A stretch of DNA of 64,000 bases from an uncultured Bacilli bacterium (GCA_963931065.1 OZ006970.1:139458-203457); one strand, 5' to 3'. Shown: positions 3,385-20,610, numbered from the stretch's first letter. Translations and numbers: made by a program. The notes: generated from the sequence alone by a model not told the origin.

Positions 3385-4275
3385 TTATTCATCTTCACTA
3401 TCAATTCCAAGTTCTATTAAATATTTTTCTTTATCACGCCAATTTTCAATTACTTTAACATGAGTTTCTAAGAATACTTTTTTCCCTAAAAATTCTTCCA
3501 TATCATTACGAGCAAGTATACCAATACGTTTTAACATATTACCATTCTTACCAATAATAATTTTCTTTAAACTATCTTTATCCACTACTATTAAGACTTG
3601 TATATGTACCAAATCATCATATTCTTCAAAGTTCTCCACATAACAAGTAACACTATGAGGAATCTCTTGTTTAGTTAACATCATTATTTTTTCGCGAACA
3701 AACTCACCCATAATAAATTTAGTAGAAACATTAGTAAGTTCATCATTATCAAATATCGCTTCATCTAGTGGCAGATATTTTTTTAATGTCTTAATTAAAT
3801 CATCTATTGCTTTCTTCTTTAACGCAGATATAGGAATAATCTCATCAAAATCATACAATTCTTTCGCTTCATCTATTACTTTAAGTAGTTTCTCACTACC
3901 TACTTTATCAATTTTATTTAGAATCAAGAAGACTTTAGCATCTTTATTTTCTTTAATTTTATTTAAAACAAACCTATCTCCCTTACCAATACCACTGTTT
4001 ACATCTATCAACAAAAGGATAATATCAGCATTATCTATATTCTGATAAGCTTTTTTATTTAAAACACTACCAAGCTTATTCATAGGTTTATGAATACCTG
4101 GAGTATCTATAAAGACAATCTGAGCCTCATCATCTTGATAAATTCCTTGTATAATATTTCTCGTAGTACCTGCTTTATCAGTTGTAATAGCAAGTTTCAT
4201 ATTAAGTATTGCATTTAATAATGTACTCTTACCTACATTAGGTCTTCCCATTATTGATACAACTCCACACTTCAT
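3385..4275 (-). CDS. era: GTPase Era
   Basis: GRPNVGKSTLLN G1 motif, DTPG, NKID, and a C-terminal KH domain. 296 aa. Confidence 0.9.
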   Translation of the reverse strand: MKCGVVSIMGRPNVGKSTLLNAILNMKLAITTDKAGTTRNIIQGIYQDDEAQIVFIDTPGIHKPMNKLGSVLNKKAYQNIDNADIILLLIDVNSGIGKGDRFVLNKIKENKDAKVFLILNKIDKVGSEKLLKVIDEAKELYDFDEIIPISALKKKAIDDLIKTLKKYLPLDEAIFDNDELTNVSTKFIMGEFVREKIMMLTKQEIPHSVTCYVENFEEYDDLVHIQVLIVVDKDSLKKIIIGKNGNMLKRIGILARNDMEEFLGKKVFLETHVKVIENWRDKEKYLIELGIDSEDE

Positions 4276-10415: not shown

Positions 10416-10476
10416 AAAACTTCACCTATAAAATTTTATGTTTTATCTAAGAAAAAAAGAAAAGAAAGATTAATCG

Positions 10477-11905
10477 GTTCTTCGACATTAAAGGGTGCTG
10501 AGTAAATTTTCAGCATTCTTTTTTGCTGGTCTAAAAAGATTAGTAATAATTAAAATTCTAGCTTTGAAATTATCAAAATTTCTATATCCAAAACCAATAC
10601 GTTTTATCAATTTACAAGTATTATTATTTCTTTCCATAACACCATTACTATATGGCTGTTCCATTGTATTTTTTATATATGGGCTAAATTCTTTTAAAGT
10701 ATTAAGTGAAGTCTGCATATATGTAGAAATTCCACTATATTCTTTGTCTATCATTTCTTTAAATAGTATATAATTTTTTCTTTGTAATGCATATAAAAGA
10801 TTTTGATATAAATCATATGTGTTTTTTAATTCTTCATTTTCATTTAATATATAATCAACTACATCGACTTCTGTCATTAAATTTTTAAAACATAGAAACT
10901 TTCTCCATTTACTACAATCAAGTTCTAATCTGGCTTTTAATAACAATTTTCCATATCTTTTTATTTTCCTATAATTAGCTTTATCTTTTTTCATCGCTTG
11001 CACTCTAGTTTTATTAAGACTTCTACTAATTAGTTGTACAATATGAAACATATCTATAATGATATTTGCATTAGGAAAATTATCTTGTACTAATTTTATA
11101 TATGGCTTATACATATCCATAACTACATTTTCTACCTTTAGTTTGTTCTCACTTAAATAATAACTAAAATATTTATTTAAATTTTCTGTTGTTCTATCTT
11201 CTACTAAATCTAATGTTTTACCAGTTTCTGCATCACATATATTAAATGCCATTGTTTTCTTTTTCCAAGTGAATTCATCAATACATATATTTATTGGAAT
11301 ATAATTTTTATATAATTTATCTTTATCATATATTTTATTAACTTGCCTCTGAACTGTTTTATCACTTACATTATGAAGCTTTGCAATAAACTTATAAGTA
11401 ATTGTTTCTTTTGCAAACATTATTATTGAATGTTTAGTATTATTACTAATTCTACATCTATAGTCAACTTCATCAGTTTGAGGAGTTATCTTATGTTTGC
11501 AGTTATTACATCTATATAATTGTTTTGTTATTTCTAAATAACTATTCAATCCTGAAATGCTTGGTATTTTTATAGGCTTGAGAGTAACAGTACCATTTTT
11601 CTTTATATTATCTACACATCCACATTTAGGACAACAATTAGGATTTTTATCTAAAAATGTTTTTATGACTAATGATCTTCTATTCTTTATATTTCTTTCT
11701 TCAACAAAATTCTCAGTAAAATTTAAATTTTTATCTTTCATATTTAGTAATTTTAATATAGAATTATTTATAGACATCACAACACCCTCTATTCTGTATT
11801 TTTTATTCTTTTAAAACATTATAGCAGGTTTGTGTTATGATGTCTTTTTTTGGTATTAAAAAGAATGCTGAAAATTTACTCAGCACCCTTTAATGTCGAA
11901 GAACC
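10477..11905 (-). mobile_element. ISL3-family insertion sequence (about 1.43 kb) with 48-bp perfect terminal inverted repeats
   Basis: 10477-10524 (ggttcttcgacattaaagggtgctgagtaaattttcagcattcttttt) is the exact reverse complement of 11858-11905. Encodes one ISL3 transposase. Confidence 0.8.
10488..11780 (-). CDS. ISL3 family transposase
   Basis: 430 aa with N-terminal zinc-finger (CPKCG...CNNCKH) and C-terminal NGVMERNNNTCKLIKRIGFGYRNFDNFKARILI, typical of ISL3 transposases. Confidence 0.85.
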   Translation of the reverse strand: MMSINNSILKLLNMKDKNLNFTENFVEERNIKNRRSLVIKTFLDKNPNCCPKCGCVDNIKKNGTVTLKPIKIPSISGLNSYLEITKQLYRCNNCKHKITPQTDEVDYRCRISNNTKHSIIMFAKETITYKFIAKLHNVSDKTVQRQVNKIYDKDKLYKNYIPINICIDEFTWKKKTMAFNICDAETGKTLDLVEDRTTENLNKYFSYYLSENKLKVENVVMDMYKPYIKLVQDNFPNANIIIDMFHIVQLISRSLNKTRVQAMKKDKANYRKIKRYGKLLLKARLELDCSKWRKFLCFKNLMTEVDVVDYILNENEELKNTYDLYQNLLYALQRKNYILFKEMIDKEYSGISTYMQTSLNTLKEFSPYIKNTMEQPYSNGVMERNNNTCKLIKRIGFGYRNFDNFKARILIITNLFRPAKKNAENLLSTL

Positions 11906-12097
11906 TCTTCTTCTCTTACGTTCATTCTTACGAGCATTCTTAATGGCTTCTTTCTTAGCCTTTCTTCTTCTTACTCCTGGTTTATCATAAGCATCATGCT
12001 TCTTTGCTTCAGAAGGGACACCACTACGAGCTAATTTTTGTTTATATCTTTTAATCGCTCCATCAAGATTACCGTTTTTTACAGTTACCTGTGCCAT
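11876..12097 (-). CDS. rpsU: 30S ribosomal protein S21 (3' end fused to the IS terminal repeat)
   Basis: MAQVTVKNGNLDGAIKRYKQKLARSGVPSEAKKHDAYDKPGVRRRKAKKEAIKNARKNERKRRR, then 9 codons (GSSTLKGAE) and the stop lying inside the ISL3 right inverted repeat. RBS aagggaggg precedes the MAQ start. Confidence 0.8.
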   Translation of the reverse strand: MAQVTVKNGNLDGAIKRYKQKLARSGVPSEAKKHDAYDKPGVRRRKAKKEAIKNARKNERKRRRGSSTLKGAE

Positions 12098-12284
12098 TAC
12101 TATTATCCCTCCCTTCACGTTTTACTACAACTGATTATAACACTAAGAACATTTAAAGTACAACATTTTTTTGACATTTTTTACATTTTTTGTAACATTT
12201 CTCCTAAAAATAGACCAAAATTATAAAAAGTAAGCACTAATATAACATTAAGTAAGCTAAAACCCACTAATTTAGTAAATCTCT

Positions 12285-12455
12285 TTAATCTAAGGGACAT
12301 ACCTCACCACTTCCTATTCTTCTAAGGGAACTTCCAAGTTTTCTACCTGCTAATATTAATATTTCAATTAAGTCTCCTACATATTTAATAGCAGTTGATG
12401 TTAAAGAAAATCCCCCTTTAATATTTTTTAATTCATAAATACTTAAATCTCTCAT
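12285..12455 (-). CDS. bacteriocin-like prepeptide 1 with double-glycine leader (MRDLSIYELKNIKGG | FSLTSTAIKYVGDLIEILILAGRKLGSSLRRIGSGEVCPLD)
   Basis: Leader matches the double-glycine consensus (L-12, S-11, E-8, L-7, I-4, GG-1). Strong RBS (gaggaggtga) 6 nt upstream of ATG at 12455. Immediately downstream of prepeptide 2 and the C39 ABC exporter. Confidence 0.6.
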   Translation of the reverse strand: MRDLSIYELKNIKGGFSLTSTAIKYVGDLIEILILAGRKLGSSLRRIGSGEVCPLD

Positions 12456-12456
12456 T

Positions 12457-12612
12457 CTAATCACCTCCTCCACATGGTTCTGGATTAGTAAAGCCACTAA
12501 TTACTCCTACAACGAATGCAATAAGAATAGATACTCCAATACCAACAACTGTACCTGATATAGCCGCTCCACCTTTAATATTCTTCATTTCATTTTTTGT
12601 TAATTCTTTCAT
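12457..12612 (-). CDS. bacteriocin-like prepeptide 2 with double-glycine leader (MKELTKNEMKNIKGG | AAISGTVVGIGVSILIAFVVGVISGFTNPEPCGGGD)
   Basis: Not in the ORF track (51 aa); found by manual translation. RBS ggagggtaaa precedes ATG at 12612. Mature part is Gly-rich and hydrophobic with GxxxG motifs, as in class IIb peptides. Stop lies 1 nt before the peptide-1 start. Confidence 0.6.
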   Translation of the reverse strand: MKELTKNEMKNIKGGAAISGTVVGIGVSILIAFVVGVISGFTNPEPCGGGD

Positions 12613-12989
12613 TTTACCCTCCAACTATCAATTATCAAACTAAATATATTAACCCGTTTATTAGGTAAAAGTATCATCATATCATCATTAATTAATTTAA
12701 AAGACTTTTCTAATTCTAAACTCAAGATAACCCCTTCTTCGAAATTATCTTTACTATTTATTTTATAATTATATTTTAAATTATCATAATAGAAGAAGTT
12801 ATTATCTATAAACAATTCTAAATCTAAAGTAGTATAAACACTAATAACATTATCATCTATATTTAAGATACTAACAGAATTATAAGTCCACAGTTTAATT
12901 GATATTAATAGATAAAAGAACACTATAGTTAAAATAAAGGTAATAATTATAGATACTAAAAGTAGTCCTTTCTTCTTATAATTCTTCAT
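12609..12989 (-). CDS. small membrane-anchored protein (candidate bacteriocin immunity/accessory protein)
   Basis: 126 aa, one N-terminal TM helix, no recognisable family. Start/stop overlap the ABC exporter and prepeptide 2, implying translational coupling in one operon. Confidence 0.4.
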   Translation of the reverse strand: MKNYKKKGLLLVSIIITFILTIVFFYLLISIKLWTYNSVSILNIDDNVISVYTTLDLELFIDNNFFYYDNLKYNYKINSKDNFEEGVILSLELEKSFKLINDDMMILLPNKRVNIFSLIIDSWRVK

Positions 12990-15069
12990 GACATTTACCT
13001 TTCTTTAAATAAAATACTCTATTAAACAAGTCTTTATTATTAAGTCGATGAGAAATATAAATAATTATCTTATCTTGATAATAATTTATAATATTTTTTA
13101 ATATCTCTCGTTCTAAAGCAACATCTACATTACTAAGACATTCATCTAATATATAAATATAACTAGGTTTAAACAAAGCTTGAGCAAGATTAATTCTTGA
13201 CCTTTCTCCCATACTAATATTTTCCCCATCTTCTAAAAGAATAGTATCAAGACTATAATTCTTATCTTTAAATAACTTCTTTACTCCTGTAATAGATAAA
13301 AGTGTATTCTGATTAAAATAAGGCTTTCTAGATAAATAAATATTATCTTTAATATTAGTATTACTAAACATCTCTTTATTAGAAACATAAGTAACAATAT
13401 CTCTAAGATCAGCAAGATTATAATGAGTTAAGTCAATATTACCAAGTTTAATATGTCCAAATGATAATGGTAAAAATCTCCCTAATAATTTAACAAGAGT
13501 ACTTTTTCCACTACCAGAATCTCCATAAATAAATACTTTATCACCTGATTTAATTTTCATATTAATATTATCAAGTACAAGATTATCTCTATATTTAAAG
13601 TATAAATTAGATATAGTTATATCCATATTTTTAGAAAGATAATTAGAATTAGGAAAAGGTAACAACAATTCCTTCTCATAATTAAAGATATCATCTAATC
13701 TCATTTTTATTTTTCTAACATTTTGATATTTAAATATTATTAAAATTAAGTTTTCTACATTCTTCAAACCCATAAAGATAAAACTCTCTAATAATAAAAA
13801 TGTCGCTAAACTTATTTGTATTGTAGTTATTAAAAGAACTCCTCCAACACCTAAAACTAATAAATAGATAATACCTTCTAATAGACTTAAAACATTTCTT
13901 ATAAACTCACTATATCTACTAACTCTATAACTTTCATCTTCCAAATTATCTGTTACTTTTCTAGTTTTCTTAAACATTACCTCCTCTAAATGTAGACCCT
14001 TAATCTTATCATTATTAATAACTACTTGTTGTAATCTATTATTATAAGTATCTCTAACTTTATAATATTTAGATAATAAATTAATACTTAATTTCTTCTG
14101 AGAATAGATAAATATAAATAAGATTATACTACTAATTATAAGGATTAATGCTAAAGAACTTGATAAGTTTAAAAAGAATAAATAGATAAATGTCAAGATA
14201 ATAATACTATTAATAAATGTTAGTACTCCACTTAATAAAGAATCTGCAAAAGTATCAATATCATTAAACAAAGATATAATAATCCCCCTTTCCTTAGTTT
14301 GATAATATAAATTAGGAAGTGATAATAACTGTTTAATTAAATTAAGTTTTAATTGATAACTAAATCTCTTTGTAAGTTTCATTGTAATAAGTTGTATAAA
14401 ATAAGAATAAATTGTCTTTAATACTAAAAGATAAAAAAAGATAAACAGTAAAACTCCCAAATTATAAATAGATTGAACTGTCAAAGCATTATTAATAATT
14501 ATCTTTAAAGAAAATAAATTCAAAAGTTCAAGACTAATACTAATTATTATAGAGATTACCATTAAAATAAGAATATTTTTATTATTAGTTATTAATTTAA
14601 GTATCTCATTTTTAATAGTTTTAATCTTTACGAATCTCTTAATATTAGCAGTCTTCTCAATAAAAAGATAATTCCCTGTCGCTATTTTATTAAACTCTTC
14701 TATTGAAAGAGACTTAATAAGATTACTAGGGTCTTTAATAATAACTTTCTTATTAGTAATATTAGTAATCACTACATAATGATAAAGATTTTTCTTATCA
14801 TCTATTTTTATATGAGCAATTACAGGTAGTGATATTTTAGGTATATCACTAACATTACCACTCTTACCATAAGCATTAAAGCCAAGGGACAGAAGAACTT
14901 CTCTAAGCCCATACATTGTTGTACCATCATAAATAGTCTCACTAACTCTTTCTAAGTAATCTCTTGAAACATTACAACTATAATATTTTGATATCATAAA
15001 AAGGCAAGAAATCCCACAGTCATAAGTTGATTCCTGCGAAACCAATTTTAATCTTTTGATTATTAACAC
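12976..15069 (-). CDS. peptidase C39-domain bacteriocin ABC transporter (processing/export ATPase-permease)
   Basis: 697 aa. N-terminal C39 Cys motif QESTYDCGISCLFMISKYY, a 6-TM permease region, and C-terminal ABC ATPase (GDSGSGKST Walker A, LSGGQ-like ISMGERSRINLAQAL, ILDE Walker B). Confidence 0.85.
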   Translation of the reverse strand: MLIIKRLKLVSQESTYDCGISCLFMISKYYSCNVSRDYLERVSETIYDGTTMYGLREVLLSLGFNAYGKSGNVSDIPKISLPVIAHIKIDDKKNLYHYVVITNITNKKVIIKDPSNLIKSLSIEEFNKIATGNYLFIEKTANIKRFVKIKTIKNEILKLITNNKNILILMVISIIISISLELLNLFSLKIIINNALTVQSIYNLGVLLFIFFYLLVLKTIYSYFIQLITMKLTKRFSYQLKLNLIKQLLSLPNLYYQTKERGIIISLFNDIDTFADSLLSGVLTFINSIIILTFIYLFFLNLSSSLALILIISSIILFIFIYSQKKLSINLLSKYYKVRDTYNNRLQQVVINNDKIKGLHLEEVMFKKTRKVTDNLEDESYRVSRYSEFIRNVLSLLEGIIYLLVLGVGGVLLITTIQISLATFLLLESFIFMGLKNVENLILIIFKYQNVRKIKMRLDDIFNYEKELLLPFPNSNYLSKNMDITISNLYFKYRDNLVLDNINMKIKSGDKVFIYGDSGSGKSTLVKLLGRFLPLSFGHIKLGNIDLTHYNLADLRDIVTYVSNKEMFSNTNIKDNIYLSRKPYFNQNTLLSITGVKKLFKDKNYSLDTILLEDGENISMGERSRINLAQALFKPSYIYILDECLSNVDVALEREILKNIINYYQDKIIIYISHRLNNKDLFNRVFYLKKGKCHEEL

Positions 15070-15191
15070 CTCCTATTATAATAATTAACAATATCTTTTT
15101 TTTTGCTCCAAAAATTTTTTGTTTATCAGTTATTTTGACAAAACTCTTAATATTTAAATGACTGTAATAAAATATGGTTAAGGTGGTAAAG

Positions 15192-15650
15192 ATGCAGTTG
15201 GGGAAAATTAGAGATTTAAGAGAAGATCATGATTTAAAACAAATAGATGTTGCTAAAATTCTTGGTGTCAAAAGAACAACCTATGCTATGTGGGAATTAG
15301 GTGATGTTAACTTTCCAATAGAAAAGTTAGTAGAACTTGCTAGATATTTTCATACTAACGTAGAATATTTACTTAACTTAACTCCTGATAAAAGAGAAAT
15401 TATTTATGAGAAAGATATAAGTGTAGAATTTATTGGAAATCAACTTAAAAGATATCGCCTAAAATTAAAGAAAACACAAAGAGAATTTGCCAAAGTTTTA
15501 AACATTAGACAATCTAGTTATTCTTACTATGAAGATGGTAAAACAAGAATACCAACTAACAAACTTGTTATACTAGCAATTACATATCACATTCCTATAA
15601 ATTATATTTGTGGTGGTAAAAGGAAAGAAAATATTAGTATCACACTATAA
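15192..15650 (+). CDS. XRE-family transcriptional regulator with two HTH domains
   Basis: Two Cro/C1-type HTH repeats (DLKQIDVAKILGVKRTTYAMWE and LKKTQREFAKVLNIRQSSYSYYE). RBS aaggtgg precedes ATG 15192. Divergent from the bacteriocin operon. Confidence 0.7.
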   Translation: MQLGKIRDLREDHDLKQIDVAKILGVKRTTYAMWELGDVNFPIEKLVELARYFHTNVEYLLNLTPDKREIIYEKDISVEFIGNQLKRYRLKLKKTQREFAKVLNIRQSSYSYYEDGKTRIPTNKLVILAITYHIPINYICGGKRKENISITL

Positions 15651-15727
15651 AATTTTAAAAAAGTGTTGACAAGTACCTTTTCTTTTCATATAATTGTAAA
15701 TGTCAATACAAATTGATGTTTACTTAT

Positions 15728-15801
15728 GCGGATGTAGTTTAATGGTAGAACCTCAGCCTTCCAAGCTGACTACGGGAGTTCGATTCTCCTCATCCGCTCC
15801 A
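15728..15801 (+). tRNA. tRNA-Gly (anticodon UCC)
   Basis: gcggatgtagtttaatggtagaacctcagccttccaagctgactacgggagttcgattctcctcatccgctcca. Cloverleaf arms pair, anticodon loop is cuUCCaa, T-loop is GTTCGATTC, and CCA is encoded. Confidence 0.85.
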
Positions 15802-15840
15802 TTAGATAATTCTGTTCGAACTATTCGGACATTAAATAGA

Positions 15841-15869
15841 AATCAATCTCAAAAGGATTGATTTTTTTG
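15841..15869 (+). terminator. rho-independent terminator after tRNA-Gly
   Basis: aatcaatc / gattgatt stem followed by a T7 run. Confidence 0.5.
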
Positions 15870-16232
15870 TTGTATAAAAAATCAACCTACTCTTAAAAGA
15901 AAGGTTGGTGAGAAAATGAAACATTACAAAATGTACAAGTCTATTATGAAGTATCTTACTGATACTAACATCAATAAGTGTTAAAGACGAAACTTTATTA
16001 CATGAATGAAAATAATGAATTAGTTAATATAGATACATCTACACTTAAGAAAGGATTATTAAAATGAAAACCAAGAAATAGAAAGATTATTAAATAGTGC
16101 CAAAAATTATTTTGGTAAAGATGAAAAATATACATTTTTAAATGTAAGAAGTGTGGCAAGTTAGATCCTGTTCCTGAATTTATTGTTAATGAACAGATTG
16201 GATTTTTAAAATTTATCGCTATGTTGTAGAAT

Positions 16233-17436
16233 TTGAGGGATAGTGATATAATAGTAGTGTCGAGAATGGATTTAGAAAGGAATATCTTTGATTGGCCAGT
16301 CAATCTAAATTCATTCTCGACAAATGAAATTTTAGGCTGGCCAATCAAAGATATTTTTTTAGGTTTTTTTATGATATTAGAAATTGATAATTTATTGCCA
16401 AATGAATTACGTACTATTATTAAAAAATTACAAAAATTATTAGATATGCAAGAAAATAGTAAAAGTATTATTAATGAAGTTATAGGTAATGAAAGACAAA
16501 ATATCTGCTGTCCAAAATGCAAAAGTACTAACATTGTTAAAGATGGTACTTACAAAGGCAGACAAAAAATTCAAATGTAAAGATTGTAGTAAAAAGTTTA
16601 ATGCTTTAACTAATACACCATTTCATCATACAAGGTTAACATATGGTCAAATAGAAGAATCTTATCAATGTTTAGTTGATAAACATACAATCAGAAAAAG
16701 TGCAAAAAGAATTGGAGTTAGTACCAAAACTGCTTTTACTCTGAGATTTAAATTAATAAACTGTTTAAAATTCATTAGAACTAATGCTAAATTAGAGGGT
16801 GACATGGAATTAGATGAGTACTATTTATCTATTAATTTAAAAGGAACAAAGAAAGAAAATATGCCACGTGCTTCTAAAAAAAGAAAAAGCGGTGGTTCTA
16901 GTAAAAGGGGAATAAGTAAACATAAAGCTTGTGTTACTTCAGGAATTGATGAATGTGATAATCTTTTTCTAGAGCTTGCTAGTACAGGCCCTGTTACCTC
17001 TGACATGATTAAAAAGACTATTGCACCTAAAATTGTTAATCCAAAAAAAGTTACTACCGATTGTAAAAGTTCTTATGAAAGTATCGCTAAAGAAAATAAC
17101 TGGAATCTTAAACAAGTAAAATCTGATACATATGTTGATTACGAAAGAAACAATCTTGCAAATATAAACTCAATACATTCTGAACTCACTTCTTTTCTTA
17201 GTTCTTTTCATGGCATTTCTACTAAACACCTACAAGAATATTTAGATTGGTTTGTTTATTTAAAATACCTAAATTATAGTGTTGATTATTTAGATCAAGC
17301 TAACTATTTTCAAAAATGTACTATAACAAAACAAACAGACATTAAATTTGATAATGTTTGCGACAATCACAGTATATTAGATTTCTATGATGTCTATGAA
17401 AATTATAACTACCATCCCTCAAATTCTACAACATAG
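16233..17436 (+). mobile_element. IS1595-family (ISXO2-like) transposase gene, interrupted by a frameshift in an A7 run (ORFs 16233..16580 and 16489..17436)
   Basis: N-terminal zinc finger CCPKCKSTNIVKDGTYKGRQK continues in another frame as FKCKDCSKKFNALTNT. C-terminal ISXO2-like DDE domain (HGISTKHLQEYLDWFVYLKYL). Frame switch is at gacaaaaaattc (about 16560). Element ends not resolved. Confidence 0.6.
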
Positions 17437-17520: not shown

Positions 17521-18312
17521 ATGCTTACAATAAATTGGAAACAAGTTTACGAAGTAAATACTAATAACAATACTCAATGGGTTTTAATACTTTATGATAT
17601 ATCAAAAAATCATTATGTCGGAGTTCCAGTATATAATTACAATGTCAAAAATAGCATATTAATAAATTCAATAAATAAATATATAATATTAGATGAAATT
17701 AGTGATTATAATAGAAGTCATATTAAAAAATGCATTTATATTAAAGGCAAACCATTAAAAATCAAAGATAATGAATTTAACGATATTTTATTAAAAAGCA
17801 AAACTAATTTCTGTGACTATATAAAAAATAATACCGATAATACACCTGATGGCATATCTTATAACAAGTGGTGTAAAGATAAGTTAATTTTAATGAATAA
17901 AAAAAGTCAAAATTTCAATCTTAAAATTGGTGCTATATGTTGGGTAGATTTAGGTTACAATATAGGAAATGAACTTAGAAAATTAAGACCTGCAATACTA
18001 TGGCGAAGTTCTTCTAATAAACAAATGTGGACTGTCATACCTCTTACATCTAAAAGAAAAAGCGACAATTATTATTTTCACTATGATATGGAAGATGATA
18101 CTCTAGGAACAGCTAGAATTGAAAATTTGATTAATATCAGTTCTAATAGAATAAGAGAACCCTATTTTGTTAATAATAAAATAGCAACAATCACTAAAAA
18201 AGACAATGATTCAATACTTAAAATTATTAAAAAATACTATGCTTTTGAAAATATTGATAACACAAAAAATAATATTAGAAAGGCAAAAAAATCCGAAAAA
18301 GTATTGACTTAG
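17521..18312 (+). CDS. protein with C-terminal PemK/MazF-like (toxin-fold) domain fused to an unknown 130-aa N-terminal domain
   Basis: Residues 135-215 (IGAICWVDLGYNIGNELRKLRPAILWRSSSNKQMWTVIPLTSKRK...LGTARIENLINISSNRI) follow the MazF/PemK pattern (G-x-I-x-V-D-f ... E-x-x-K-x-RP-a-l-v ... v-x-v-P-x-TS). No adjacent antitoxin-sized ORF. Confidence 0.4.
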   Translation: MLTINWKQVYEVNTNNNTQWVLILYDISKNHYVGVPVYNYNVKNSILINSINKYIILDEISDYNRSHIKKCIYIKGKPLKIKDNEFNDILLKSKTNFCDYIKNNTDNTPDGISYNKWCKDKLILMNKKSQNFNLKIGAICWVDLGYNIGNELRKLRPAILWRSSSNKQMWTVIPLTSKRKSDNYYFHYDMEDDTLGTARIENLINISSNRIREPYFVNNKIATITKKDNDSILKIIKKYYAFENIDNTKNNIRKAKKSEKVLT

Positions 18313-18416: not shown

Positions 18417-19096
18417 TTAATTATTAATATTTTTAATACCCACTTCTAGAATCATAACATCAGAAGGTGTATCAATTATAAATTTAATTAATCTGGCCAC
18501 TTCTTTAGTATCAATACCATTTTCCATATTTTTTTGAATATTCATTTTATTAAACATATCAGTTTTCATCATACCAGGCATAACATTAGTAACTCTTATT
18601 CCATATTTTGCTACTTCATCTGCTAAAGATTTACAAAACCAGTTACTCCCCATTTCGTAGCATTATAAACAACTCTTTCAGCTTTATGATTAATTCCTGC
18701 TTGTGAATTAATATTAATAATTAAGGCATCTTTATTCTTCTTCACAATTGGTATAACTGCTTTAGAACAATTAATAACTCCTAGCAAATTAACATCTATA
18801 ACATCATTAATTCTATCACTATCATTAGTATCTAATTCTTCTTGAATCCATAATCCAGCATTATTAATTAAAACATCAATTTTTCCAAATTTTTCAATAA
18901 TTTCATTAATACATTGTTCTACTTGAAAATAATTACTTACATCACAAACTTTATAATTGCAATTATTATTTGCAACTTTTATCAGTTTTTCTTCATTAGT
19001 AGCCAAAATAATTATCTCCTTTTCTTTTGATAATGATTCAGTCAAAGTTTTTCCTAAACCATCATTTCCACCTGTTATTATGATTACTTTTTTCAA
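18417..19096 (-). pseudogene. SDR family oxidoreductase, frameshifted (ORFs 18623..19096 and 18417..18653)
   Basis: TGGNDGLGKTL Rossmann motif and the YNATK catalytic motif are in the upstream ORF. The remainder (CKSLADEVAKYGIRVTNVMPG) continues in another frame. Confidence 0.6.
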
Positions 19097-20052: not shown

Positions 20053-20610
20053 CTATTCTTCAATAATACCATTATCTTTAAAGAAATTAACAACAGTATC
20101 TTTATCAGTTAAACCTTCTATAACGTCAACAAAATCATTATCTTTAACTATTATTAACATAGGTGTTCCATATCCACCCTTTTCATCAAAATAATCATTA
20201 GACTTAATAAAATCTGCTTGACCTTCATCATCTAACTCATCTGTATTTAAATAATGAACTTTAACATTATATTCATATACTACATTTCTAACAATAGGTT
20301 CCATCTCTTGACAATAATGACACGTTGGTCTAGCTACATAAATTATAGATGCTTCATCATCTTTTAATAAATCCAAATATTCATCTATACCAATTTCATC
20401 TAAATCTCCTTGTTCATCTTCTGAAATATCACTATCTGTAGAAGTTGCAGCATTAGAACTATTAGTATCAGTAGAACTTGTACCAGTACTAACATCTTTA
20501 TTATTACATTCCTTTAATTCTGATATAAAATAACTTGCACCAAATACTATTATTAAAACTAAAACTACTATAGTAGTGCTCTTAATTTTTTCAATTGTTC
20601 CCTTCTTCAT
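20053..20610 (-). CDS. membrane-anchored thioredoxin-family protein
   Basis: N-terminal TM helix, acidic Ser/Thr-rich linker, thioredoxin fold with a CHYC (CxxC) motif. Confidence 0.6.
   Translation of the reverse strand: MKKGTIEKIKSTTIVVLVLIIVFGASYFISELKECNNKDVSTGTSSTDTNSSNAATSTDSDISEDEQGDLDEIGIDEYLDLLKDDEASIIYVARPTCHYCQEMEPIVRNVVYEYNVKVHYLNTDELDDEGQADFIKSNDYFDEKGGYGTPMLIIVKDNDFVDVIEGLTDKDTVVNFFKDNGIIEE

Follow-up and report, generated by a model that had tools for sequence, protein, structure and literature searches.

What is made by the compact row of small genes upstream of rpsU in an uncultured Bacilli bacterium, and do its two peptide products form a bacteriocin? The locus occupies positions 12181 to 15650 of a DNA stretch of 64,000 nucleotides (nt) (GCA_963931065.1 OZ006970.1:139458-203457; hereafter the window), to which all coordinates refer; the source is an uncultured organism of a reduced-genome lineage from the chicken gut. 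Five minus-strand genes follow one another in series, each overlapping or abutting the next: an exporter, a 126-residue protein, two prepeptides with double-glycine (GG) leaders (pep1 and pep2) and an open reading frame (ORF) of 39 residues. With moderate confidence, we read this locus as an operon for a class IIb-like two-peptide bacteriocin, the antimicrobial activity of the peptide pair being presumed. The anatomy of the operon, the two leaders and the GxxxG motif shared by both mature peptides are what chiefly speak for this reading, and they are presented first. The features of the locus are as follows.

15174..15650, plus strand: XRE-type regulator of 158 residues with two HTH_3 domains, divergent from the operon
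15070..15173, no strand assigned: presumed control region shared by the divergent XRE and exporter genes, strongly conserved
12976..15069, minus strand: exporter, a peptidase-containing ATP-binding cassette (ABC) transporter (PCAT), 697-residue ORF with C39, ABC_membrane and ABC_tran domains
12609..12989, minus strand: single-pass membrane protein of 126 residues, in the slot of an accessory gene
12457..12612, minus strand: pep1, prepeptide of 51 residues (15-residue GG leader and 36-residue mature part)
12285..12455, minus strand: pep2, prepeptide of 56 residues (15-residue GG leader and 41-residue mature part)
12181..12300, minus strand: single-pass ORF of 39 residues, candidate immunity protein, overlapping the end of pep2

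Gene order and translational coupling

An earlier note on this DNA had described two adjacent GG-leader ORFs, translationally coupled downstream of a C39 exporter and a 126-residue protein. Both ORFs are indeed present on the minus strand and the coupling is plainly seen: the exporter gene overlaps the gene of the 126-residue protein by 14 nt, the latter overlaps pep1 by 4 nt (ATGA), and pep1 and pep2 are separated by a gap of 1 nt on the same strand, an arrangement kept in every related locus inspected. The region proposed in that note stopped at 12285, however, and should reach 12181 in order to take in a fifth gene, the 39-residue ORF, which shares its first 16 nt with the end of pep2. Within the two prepeptide genes, coding sequence doubles as translation signals for the next gene. 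The Shine-Dalgarno sequence of pep2 (GGAGGTGAT) sits within the GGGD codons of pep1; likewise, the GSG(D/E) codons of pep2 contain a Shine-Dalgarno-like GGTGA for the 39-residue ORF, whose start codon (ATG or TTG) is formed by the (I/V/L)-Cys codons of pep2. The operon is followed by rpsU, yqfC, yqfD, a vanZ-like gene and ybeY; a search for terminator-like sites from 11800 to 15900, the space between operon and rpsU included, found none.

Two further descriptions of the locus hold in part. The 51-residue prepeptide had been called unannotated; this is partly so, but several public assemblies (L002, L003, L005) do list the gene, and close variants of pep1 are present in the protein collection. 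The gene order had been called unusual, and the leading position of the exporter gene is real, but it merely permutes the content of the lactococcin G operon.

Prepeptides

The pep1 precursor is composed of the leader MKELTKNEMKNIKGG and the mature part AAISGTVVGIGVSILIAFVVGVISGFTNPEPCGGGD, and the pep2 precursor of the leader MRDLSIYELKNIKGG and the mature part FSLTSTAIKYVGDLIEILILAGRKLGSSLRRIGSGEVCPLD, the boundaries being predicted ones. Each leader is 15 residues long and ends in GG. Homology between pep1 and pep2 is seen in the leaders (hhalign probability 96.7%) but not in the mature parts. The pep1 precursor scores 19 bits on the leader model TIGR01847 (cut-off 15.7) and 24.3 bits on TIGR03949 (cut-off 21.5), a class IIb model of the lactobin A/cerein 7B family that is matched by 13 of 13 pep1 variants (22.4-27.8 bits for the five that were scored singly). 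The likeness to this family lies in the GG leader and in the hydrophobic, Gly-rich stretch after it; the score derives mainly from the leader, and the NPExC tail of pep1 has no counterpart in the 45 positions of the model. With the leader removed, mature pep1 (four variants) matched neither TIGR03949 nor any other bacteriocin model at E up to 10, and its membership of TIGR03949 is therefore driven by the leader. Mature pep2 without its leader matched no bacteriocin model at E up to 10 either. The pep2 precursor resembles TIGR03949 at the level of the leader only (E 0.056) and has no match in Pfam, while some pep2 variants weakly match the ComC, BlpC and EntF-inducer models, again at leader level. 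Weak matches to NF045747 of NCBIfam (the MPN313 family of Mycoplasma pneumoniae; best E 0.0018) were obtained for 8 of 13 pep1 variants over positions 1-41 of 87; together with the MAG1140 family discussed below, this makes two faint links to families specific to Mollicutes. The peptide motifs were not found in the literature searched, and no plasmid homologue of pep2 was found. As judged from sequence comparison, mature pep1 and mature pep2 appear to be new.

Mature pep1 is a hydrophobic helix of 36 residues in which GxxxG is followed by xxNPExC. In the Onthousia-like group it displays a ladder of the small-xxx-small type (in the peptide of the window, G5, G9, S13, A17, G21 and G25), which may constitute a glycine-zipper face on a membrane-spanning helix. 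Mature pep2, 41 residues long and amphipathic, contains the invariant motif G(R)KLGS..RR and ends in CPLD, the Cys being the fourth residue from the end. Counted along the precursors, the invariant residues are F33, G36, G40, P44 and C47 in pep1 and G37, G41, S42, R45, R46, C53 and L55 in pep2, so that GxxxG is invariant in both peptides (G36xxxG40 and G37xxxG41, respectively). The Cys is 7 positions past the second Gly of this motif in all 16 pep1 variants examined, and 12 positions past it in all 8 of pep2. Every mature pep1 has one Cys, and so has mature pep2, save for two distant variants with a second. The net charge of mature pep1 is -2 in the window and -1 to -3 across variants; that of mature pep2 is +1 in the window and 0 to +3 across variants.

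These traits correct the earlier picture of a Gly-rich peptide with GxxxG motifs beside a cationic one with a C-terminal Cys. The two mature parts do differ, but GxxxG is not confined to one of them, and both carry it together with a single Cys near the C-terminus. This Cys is not terminal, being followed by four more residues in pep1 and three in pep2, and "cationic" overstates a charge of only +1, the partner being at -2. The possibility that the Cys of pep2 is kept merely through its overlap with the start codon of the 39-residue ORF was ruled out, given that it is retained in two loci (L043 and L045) without that ORF.

Exporter and 126-residue protein

By its sequence the exporter is a PCAT, and a divergent member of this group. 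Pfam recognizes Peptidase_C39 (103.7 bits), ABC_membrane (60.5) and ABC_tran (77.8), all above their cut-offs, and the motifs comprise Q12, C18 (YDCG), the histidine of HYVV, the aspartate of KDPS, Walker A (GDSGSGKST) and Walker B (IYILDE). The closest solved relatives are ComA of S. pneumoniae (8hf7; 220 bits) and PCAT1 of C. thermocellum (4ry2; 188 bits). The exporter aligns end to end with both, as a full-length protein with C39 peptidase, transmembrane and nucleotide-binding domains in which the catalytic DCG Cys, HY His and DP Asp are aligned, although its identity to them is only about 25-30%. The scores on TIGR01193 (281 bits; cut-off 524) and on NF045998, the model of the Mbov_0121-family PCAT of mycoplasmas (233 bits; cut-off 500), remain under the curated cut-offs, which is why we call it divergent. 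Several public calls of this protein (673 residues) begin at Met25, a start that would delete both Q12 and the catalytic C18. The 697-residue ORF opens at 15069 with a GTG that is at the same time part of a perfect Shine-Dalgarno sequence (AGGAGGTG; 15061..15075, minus strand). As third codon, 19 of 20 loci have ATA, and only L038 has ATG. The exact start is uncertain on both counts, and these features suggest a start codon that is non-canonical or deliberately weak.

The second gene encodes the 126-residue protein, which has no Pfam family and no match in a sequence search of the PDB. An AlphaFold2 model built on a family alignment of 29 sequences (predicted local distance difference test, pLDDT, 89.7) has a helix at residues 3-29 after a basic N-terminus, six to seven beta strands, and a helix at residues 114-123 that holds the most conserved segment of the family, IIDSWR. 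Going by this model, the protein would be oriented N-in, with a small extracytoplasmic beta-barrel. Foldseek against the PDB returned generic small barrels only (best E 0.049) and no membrane-fusion protein. The locus lacks an HlyD domain, which confirms the earlier remark that there is no accessory protein of the HlyD/LcnD type; one of the 29 relatives of the 126-residue protein touches HlyD_2 (E 0.017, not significant).

On NF045999 of NCBIfam (MAG1140_fam, from mycoplasmas) the 126-residue protein scores 16.8 bits (E 0.0055), far under the cut-off of 35, but the two are of equal length and the alignment runs end to end, over 1-125 of 126 model positions. Weak matches to the same model at E up to 0.1 (best 2e-5) were found for 18 of 29 family representatives. 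The accession directly before it in NCBIfam is NF045998, the mycoplasma PCAT model on which our exporter scores as well, also far under its cut-off, and this adjacency hints that a MAG1140-like 126-residue protein is the partner of an exporter. A profile search of a large protein collection with the 126-residue family gave only close relatives among the best 120 matches listed, and in the literature searched Mbov_0121 is mentioned only as a VFDB hit. We treat the link to MAG1140 as a remote, weakly indicated resemblance, that is, as a lead. The position of the gene points the same way: it overlaps the exporter gene and precedes the peptides, for which reason we read its product as a putative exporter partner. 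In other systems the slot behind the exporter is occupied by accessories of the LcnD/LagE type, and the usual HlyD/LcnD-type protein has about 450 residues. ComA works with a partner, ComB, and PCAT1 without one.

One call of this gene has to be set aside. In L014 (1255..1782) a 175-residue "fusion" of the 126-residue protein and pep1 (P0143) is an artefact: the TGA within the ATGA overlap was taken for a sense codon, presumably through gene calling with the mycoplasma genetic code; table 11 gives two genes.

The 39-residue reading frame and immunity

The fifth gene reads MSLRLKRFTKLVGFSLLNVILVLTFYNFGLFLGEMLQKM, with a basic N-terminus and one hydrophobic span. An ORF of this kind bearing FYNFGxFLG occurs in 23 of 24 genome loci, the remaining one (L018) stopping at the edge of the fetched stretch, and a more diverged form is found in L021, L041, L044 and L046. 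Across loci its length is 36-50 residues with one transmembrane span, and it has no NCBIfam match and no family. In class IIb systems the immunity gene shares the operon with the two peptide genes and follows them (PMC2850506). CbnZ, of 42 residues with one transmembrane domain, is an experimentally proven immunity protein, and BrcI and AbpIM are further parallels among small immunity proteins (PMC6957408). Given its location directly after pep2 and its CbnZ-like size, the 39-residue ORF is our best candidate for the immunity protein, by position and analogy only.

The earlier note had assigned immunity to the 126-residue protein instead. We hold this to be unlikely, the ORF missed in that note filling the canonical slot and the 126-residue protein that of an accessory. 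The latter is, to be sure, an operon-encoded membrane protein; it evolves fast (39-84% identity against 56-93% for the peptides), as if tracking the peptides, and it is found also in the two loci without the 39-residue ORF, L043 and L045. Accessory proteins of class IIb systems may contribute to immunity as well (PMC2850506). Against this assignment, the gene lies between exporter and peptides and overlaps the former by 14 nt, whereas class IIb immunity genes follow the peptides; the slot after the peptides is already taken by a conserved ORF with one transmembrane span; and the full-length, if weak, resemblance to MAG1140 hints at an exporter partner.

Distribution and selection

Relatives of the locus were found with a degenerate DNA pattern for the core motif of pep2. 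The pattern occurs in 24 species-representative genomes (GTDB), all of them metagenome-assembled genomes, labelled Candidatus Onthousia, uncultured Bacilli or uncultured Tenericutes, with one Muribaculaceae that may be mis-binned. Wherever the fetched stretch suffices, these 24 genomes have the order exporter, 126-residue protein, pep1, pep2, small ORF, rpsU, and so do about 10 further metagenome loci, including more distant relatives. An exhaustive HMMER search with the 126-residue protein yielded 31 clusters at 50% identity in all. The eight of these that were inspected (down to E ~1e-3) have the order exporter, 126-residue protein, pep1, pep2 as far as the contigs reach, with rpsU next wherever the contig is long enough. 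The divergence of the exporter tracks that of the core protein YqfD (exporter/YqfD identities of 89/84%, 58/69%, 35/47% and 32/37%), which implies vertical inheritance. From these comparisons we take the module to be chromosomal, vertically inherited and kept at one site upstream of rpsU across the lineage. A horizontally acquired island was considered and rejected: the G+C content is flat (22-29% over 6-22 kb) and the module is syntenic in distant relatives.

Among nearer species the identities are 56-93% for the mature peptides, 39-84% for the 126-residue protein and 36-77% for the 39-residue ORF. The ratios of non-synonymous to synonymous substitution (dN/dS; pairwise Nei-Gojobori estimates) are 0.19 for mature pep1, 0.15 for mature pep2, 0.34 for the 126-residue protein and 0.35 for the 39-residue ORF outside the overlap. 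All four small genes are under purifying selection (0.15-0.35), and this together with the recurrent gene order indicates that they are real genes.

The module is also seen broken. In L004, which belongs to the same species and is 99.8% identical over 3.9 kb, homology is lost at window position 12494, inside pep1; from its position 3875 onwards pep1 ends in ...VISGHIAPK and is followed by unrelated genes (HTH_36, PemK-like, cold-shock, CAP). This break is either a mobile-element insertion or rearrangement that destroyed the peptide genes, or an assembly chimera. A further pep1 variant, P0128, is frameshifted. Broken copies of pep1 such as these imply that the locus is dispensable, as expected of a bacteriocin locus.

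Regulator and control region

Upstream of the exporter, the divergent double helix-turn-helix (HTH) regulator of the XRE type is as the earlier note had described it. Pfam finds HTH_3 in two stretches (E 1.5e-24), and a sensor or peptide-binding domain is lacking. The gene is divergent in most related loci, with 75-96% identity among nearer species; in L046 it is not present upstream. The region between the two transcription units is highly conserved across the aligned loci (n=20), with the stretches TTGTCAAAATAACTGATAAAC and TTATTATAATAGGAGGTG, and contains a promoter-like TTGTCA/AAAAAT at 15141..15114 on the minus strand. No convincing operator palindrome was found in it, only weak AT-rich inverted repeats. 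The XRE protein is probably a repressor of the operon.

Comparison with known systems

A class IIb bacteriocin is recognised by two peptide genes lying side by side in the same operon, by GG leaders 15-30 residues long, by GxxxG motifs and by an ABC transporter of its own (PMC2850506). The locus has adjacent prepeptide genes, 15-residue GG leaders, GxxxG in both peptides and a C39 ABC exporter; an accessory of the HlyD/LcnD type, usual though not universal, is missing. Set beside the operons for lactococcin G (lagABCDE), carnobacteriocin XY (cbnXYZ), brochocin-C and ABP-118, it agrees in that the prepeptide genes are neighbours within a single operon, their GG leaders have 15 residues, both mature peptides (30-45 residues) contain GxxxG, a dedicated C39 ABC exporter is encoded, and a small membrane protein comes straight after the second peptide (compare CbnZ). 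It departs from them in several respects: the exporter gene comes first; an unrelated 126-residue protein stands in place of the accessory of about 450 residues; the mature peptides have no relatives among curated bacteriocins, pep1 being anionic and pep2 nearly neutral; a single invariant Cys stands at a constant spacing from GxxxG in each peptide; and the module is adjacent to rpsU across the lineage instead of strain-variable or plasmid-borne.

Outside class IIb, a parallel exists in CdzC/CdzD of Caulobacter (PMC5380434), which are reported to be likewise two exported partners of the GG-leader type with small-xxx-small glycine zippers, served by a dedicated exporter and a small immunity protein (a candidate only in our case). 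The Cdz system differs in being proteobacterial and, reportedly, in needing an HlyD partner and in forming surface aggregates for contact-dependent killing; between CdzC/CdzD and pep1/pep2, sequence similarity is lacking.

Proposed mechanism and alternatives

What is observed directly comprises the genes and the way they are coupled, the domains with their catalytic residues, and the conservation together with purifying selection; from cleavage onward we infer the steps of the following scheme. The divergent XRE protein would repress the operon, and translational coupling of the five genes would give roughly matched amounts of their products. The PCAT would recognize the 15-residue leaders, cleave after Gly-Gly by means of Cys18, His and Asp, and export peptides of 36 and 41 residues. 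In the target membrane pep1 would form a helix that crosses the bilayer and bears the small-residue ladder; it would pair, through the invariant GxxxG motifs of both, with the amphipathic helix of pep2, and the two would permeabilise the membrane, causing leakage; their single cysteines, at fixed distances from GxxxG, would then come close to each other on the C-terminal side. The 39-residue single-pass peptide would protect the producer, and the 126-residue protein would assist the exporter, replacing an HlyD/LcnD-type accessory of about 450 residues.

The class IIb reading of the earlier note retains the operon anatomy, the GG leaders and GxxxG in its support, but obtains none from the leaderless peptides, which match no bacteriocin model or family. 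Other observations also weigh against it. A positive charge is typical of the class II bacteriocins characterised so far, whereas pep1 carries a net charge of -1 to -3 and pep2 is about neutral. The module is fixed at one chromosomal site and its peptides are conserved like core proteins, which is more typical of housekeeping than of a weapon in an arms race. The 39-residue ORF is absent from two distant loci, L043 and L045, and a link between the 126-residue protein and HlyD-type accessories could not be demonstrated in Pfam, PDB and Foldseek searches.

Part of this would suit an alternative to which we give a rather low probability, namely that the exported peptides are not weapons but conserved components of the membrane or surface, or self-directed factors (of the envelope or sporulation, for example). 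In that case the PCAT would deliver them to the outer face of the membrane, with the 126-residue and 39-residue proteins as membrane partners. The constant site upstream of rpsU-yqfC-yqfD, down to YqfD identities of 37-47%, agrees with such a role, as do the core-like conservation of the mature peptides (higher than that of the 126-residue and 39-residue proteins), their anionic or neutral charge, their lack of similarity to known bacteriocins, and the weak resemblance of the 126-residue protein to a family of mycoplasmas, which have minimal genomes. That the peptides evolve slowly at a core-like locus fits a weapon no better than it fits a conserved physiological role. The anatomy of the locus, however, matches class IIb operons point for point, and individual strains have lost or broken it, so that it is dispensable. 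Moreover, we know of no non-bacteriocin function for paired GG-leader GxxxG peptides in Firmicutes, and species-wide bacteriocin loci do exist elsewhere, such as blp in pneumococci.

A more specific proposal, which we put forward as quite improbable, is that the peptides form a covalent heterodimer by an interchain disulfide after GxxxG pairing, exported by a minimal system, shared with mycoplasmas, of PCAT and MAG1140-like 126-residue partner. The idea derives from the one invariant Cys per peptide at a fixed distance (7 and 12 residues) from GxxxG; to our knowledge, no disulfide-linked two-peptide bacteriocin has been known before.

That one peptide is a bacteriocin and the other a secreted pheromone inducing the operon, akin to the signalling peptide considered in the earlier note, we judge very improbable: PCATs do export pheromones too (ComC, BlpC, PlnA) and some pep2 variants have the weak ComC, BlpC and EntF-inducer matches mentioned above, but these are leader-driven and the mature peptides match nothing, a histidine kinase or response regulator is lacking at this locus and at related loci, the XRE protein consists of two HTH domains without a peptide-binding domain, and the two mature peptides are co-conserved, both long (36 and 41 residues), and provided with matching invariant GxxxG and Cys, as partners would be.

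Neighbouring elements

Several other elements lie close to the operon. An ISL3-family element at 10476..11904 (transposase ORF 11780..10488, minus strand) is inserted in the last codons of rpsU, as judged against a same-species assembly (L003; 99.5% identical); its ends carry the same terminal sequence of about 45 nt in inverted orientation, and it alters the C-terminus of S21 from ...RRRERD to ...RRRGSSTLKGAE. Beyond the XRE gene is a tRNA-Gly (15728..15801). Between this tRNA gene and the PedC-like gene described below are found an IS1595-family transposase (16489..17436), a protein of 263 residues whose domain is that of a PemK toxin (17521..18312), and a short-chain dehydrogenase gene split in two ORFs (18417..18653 and 18623..19096) that is probably a pseudogene.

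Further on, at 20053..20610, the minus strand encodes a membrane-anchored thioredoxin-fold protein of 185 residues (CHYC) that matches PedC-like and TraF in Pfam. Its gene has the orientation of the operon and is located 5 kb upstream, with insertion sequences and toxin-like genes in between. Such a thioredoxin could oxidise the cysteines of the peptides; as a part of the module it was dropped, since no copy of it turned up in the flanks fetched for other species.

Significance

Loci of this type are routinely reported by genome-mining tools, and what is odd about the present one are the paired invariant cysteines and the core-like conservation. The 39-residue candidate for immunity is shorter than CbnZ (42 residues), the shortest proven for the class. 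The orphan family of the 126-residue protein gains a first functional context, as the putative partner of a PCAT in place of an HlyD-type accessory. Should the peptides prove to form a disulfide-linked heterodimer, the clade-wide retention of the module next to rpsU would suggest a conserved physiological role beyond that of a weapon. If the peptides are active, the operon would provide a new two-peptide bacteriocin, with mature sequences unrelated to known ones, from a lineage of chicken-gut bacteria that is uncultured and has a reduced genome.

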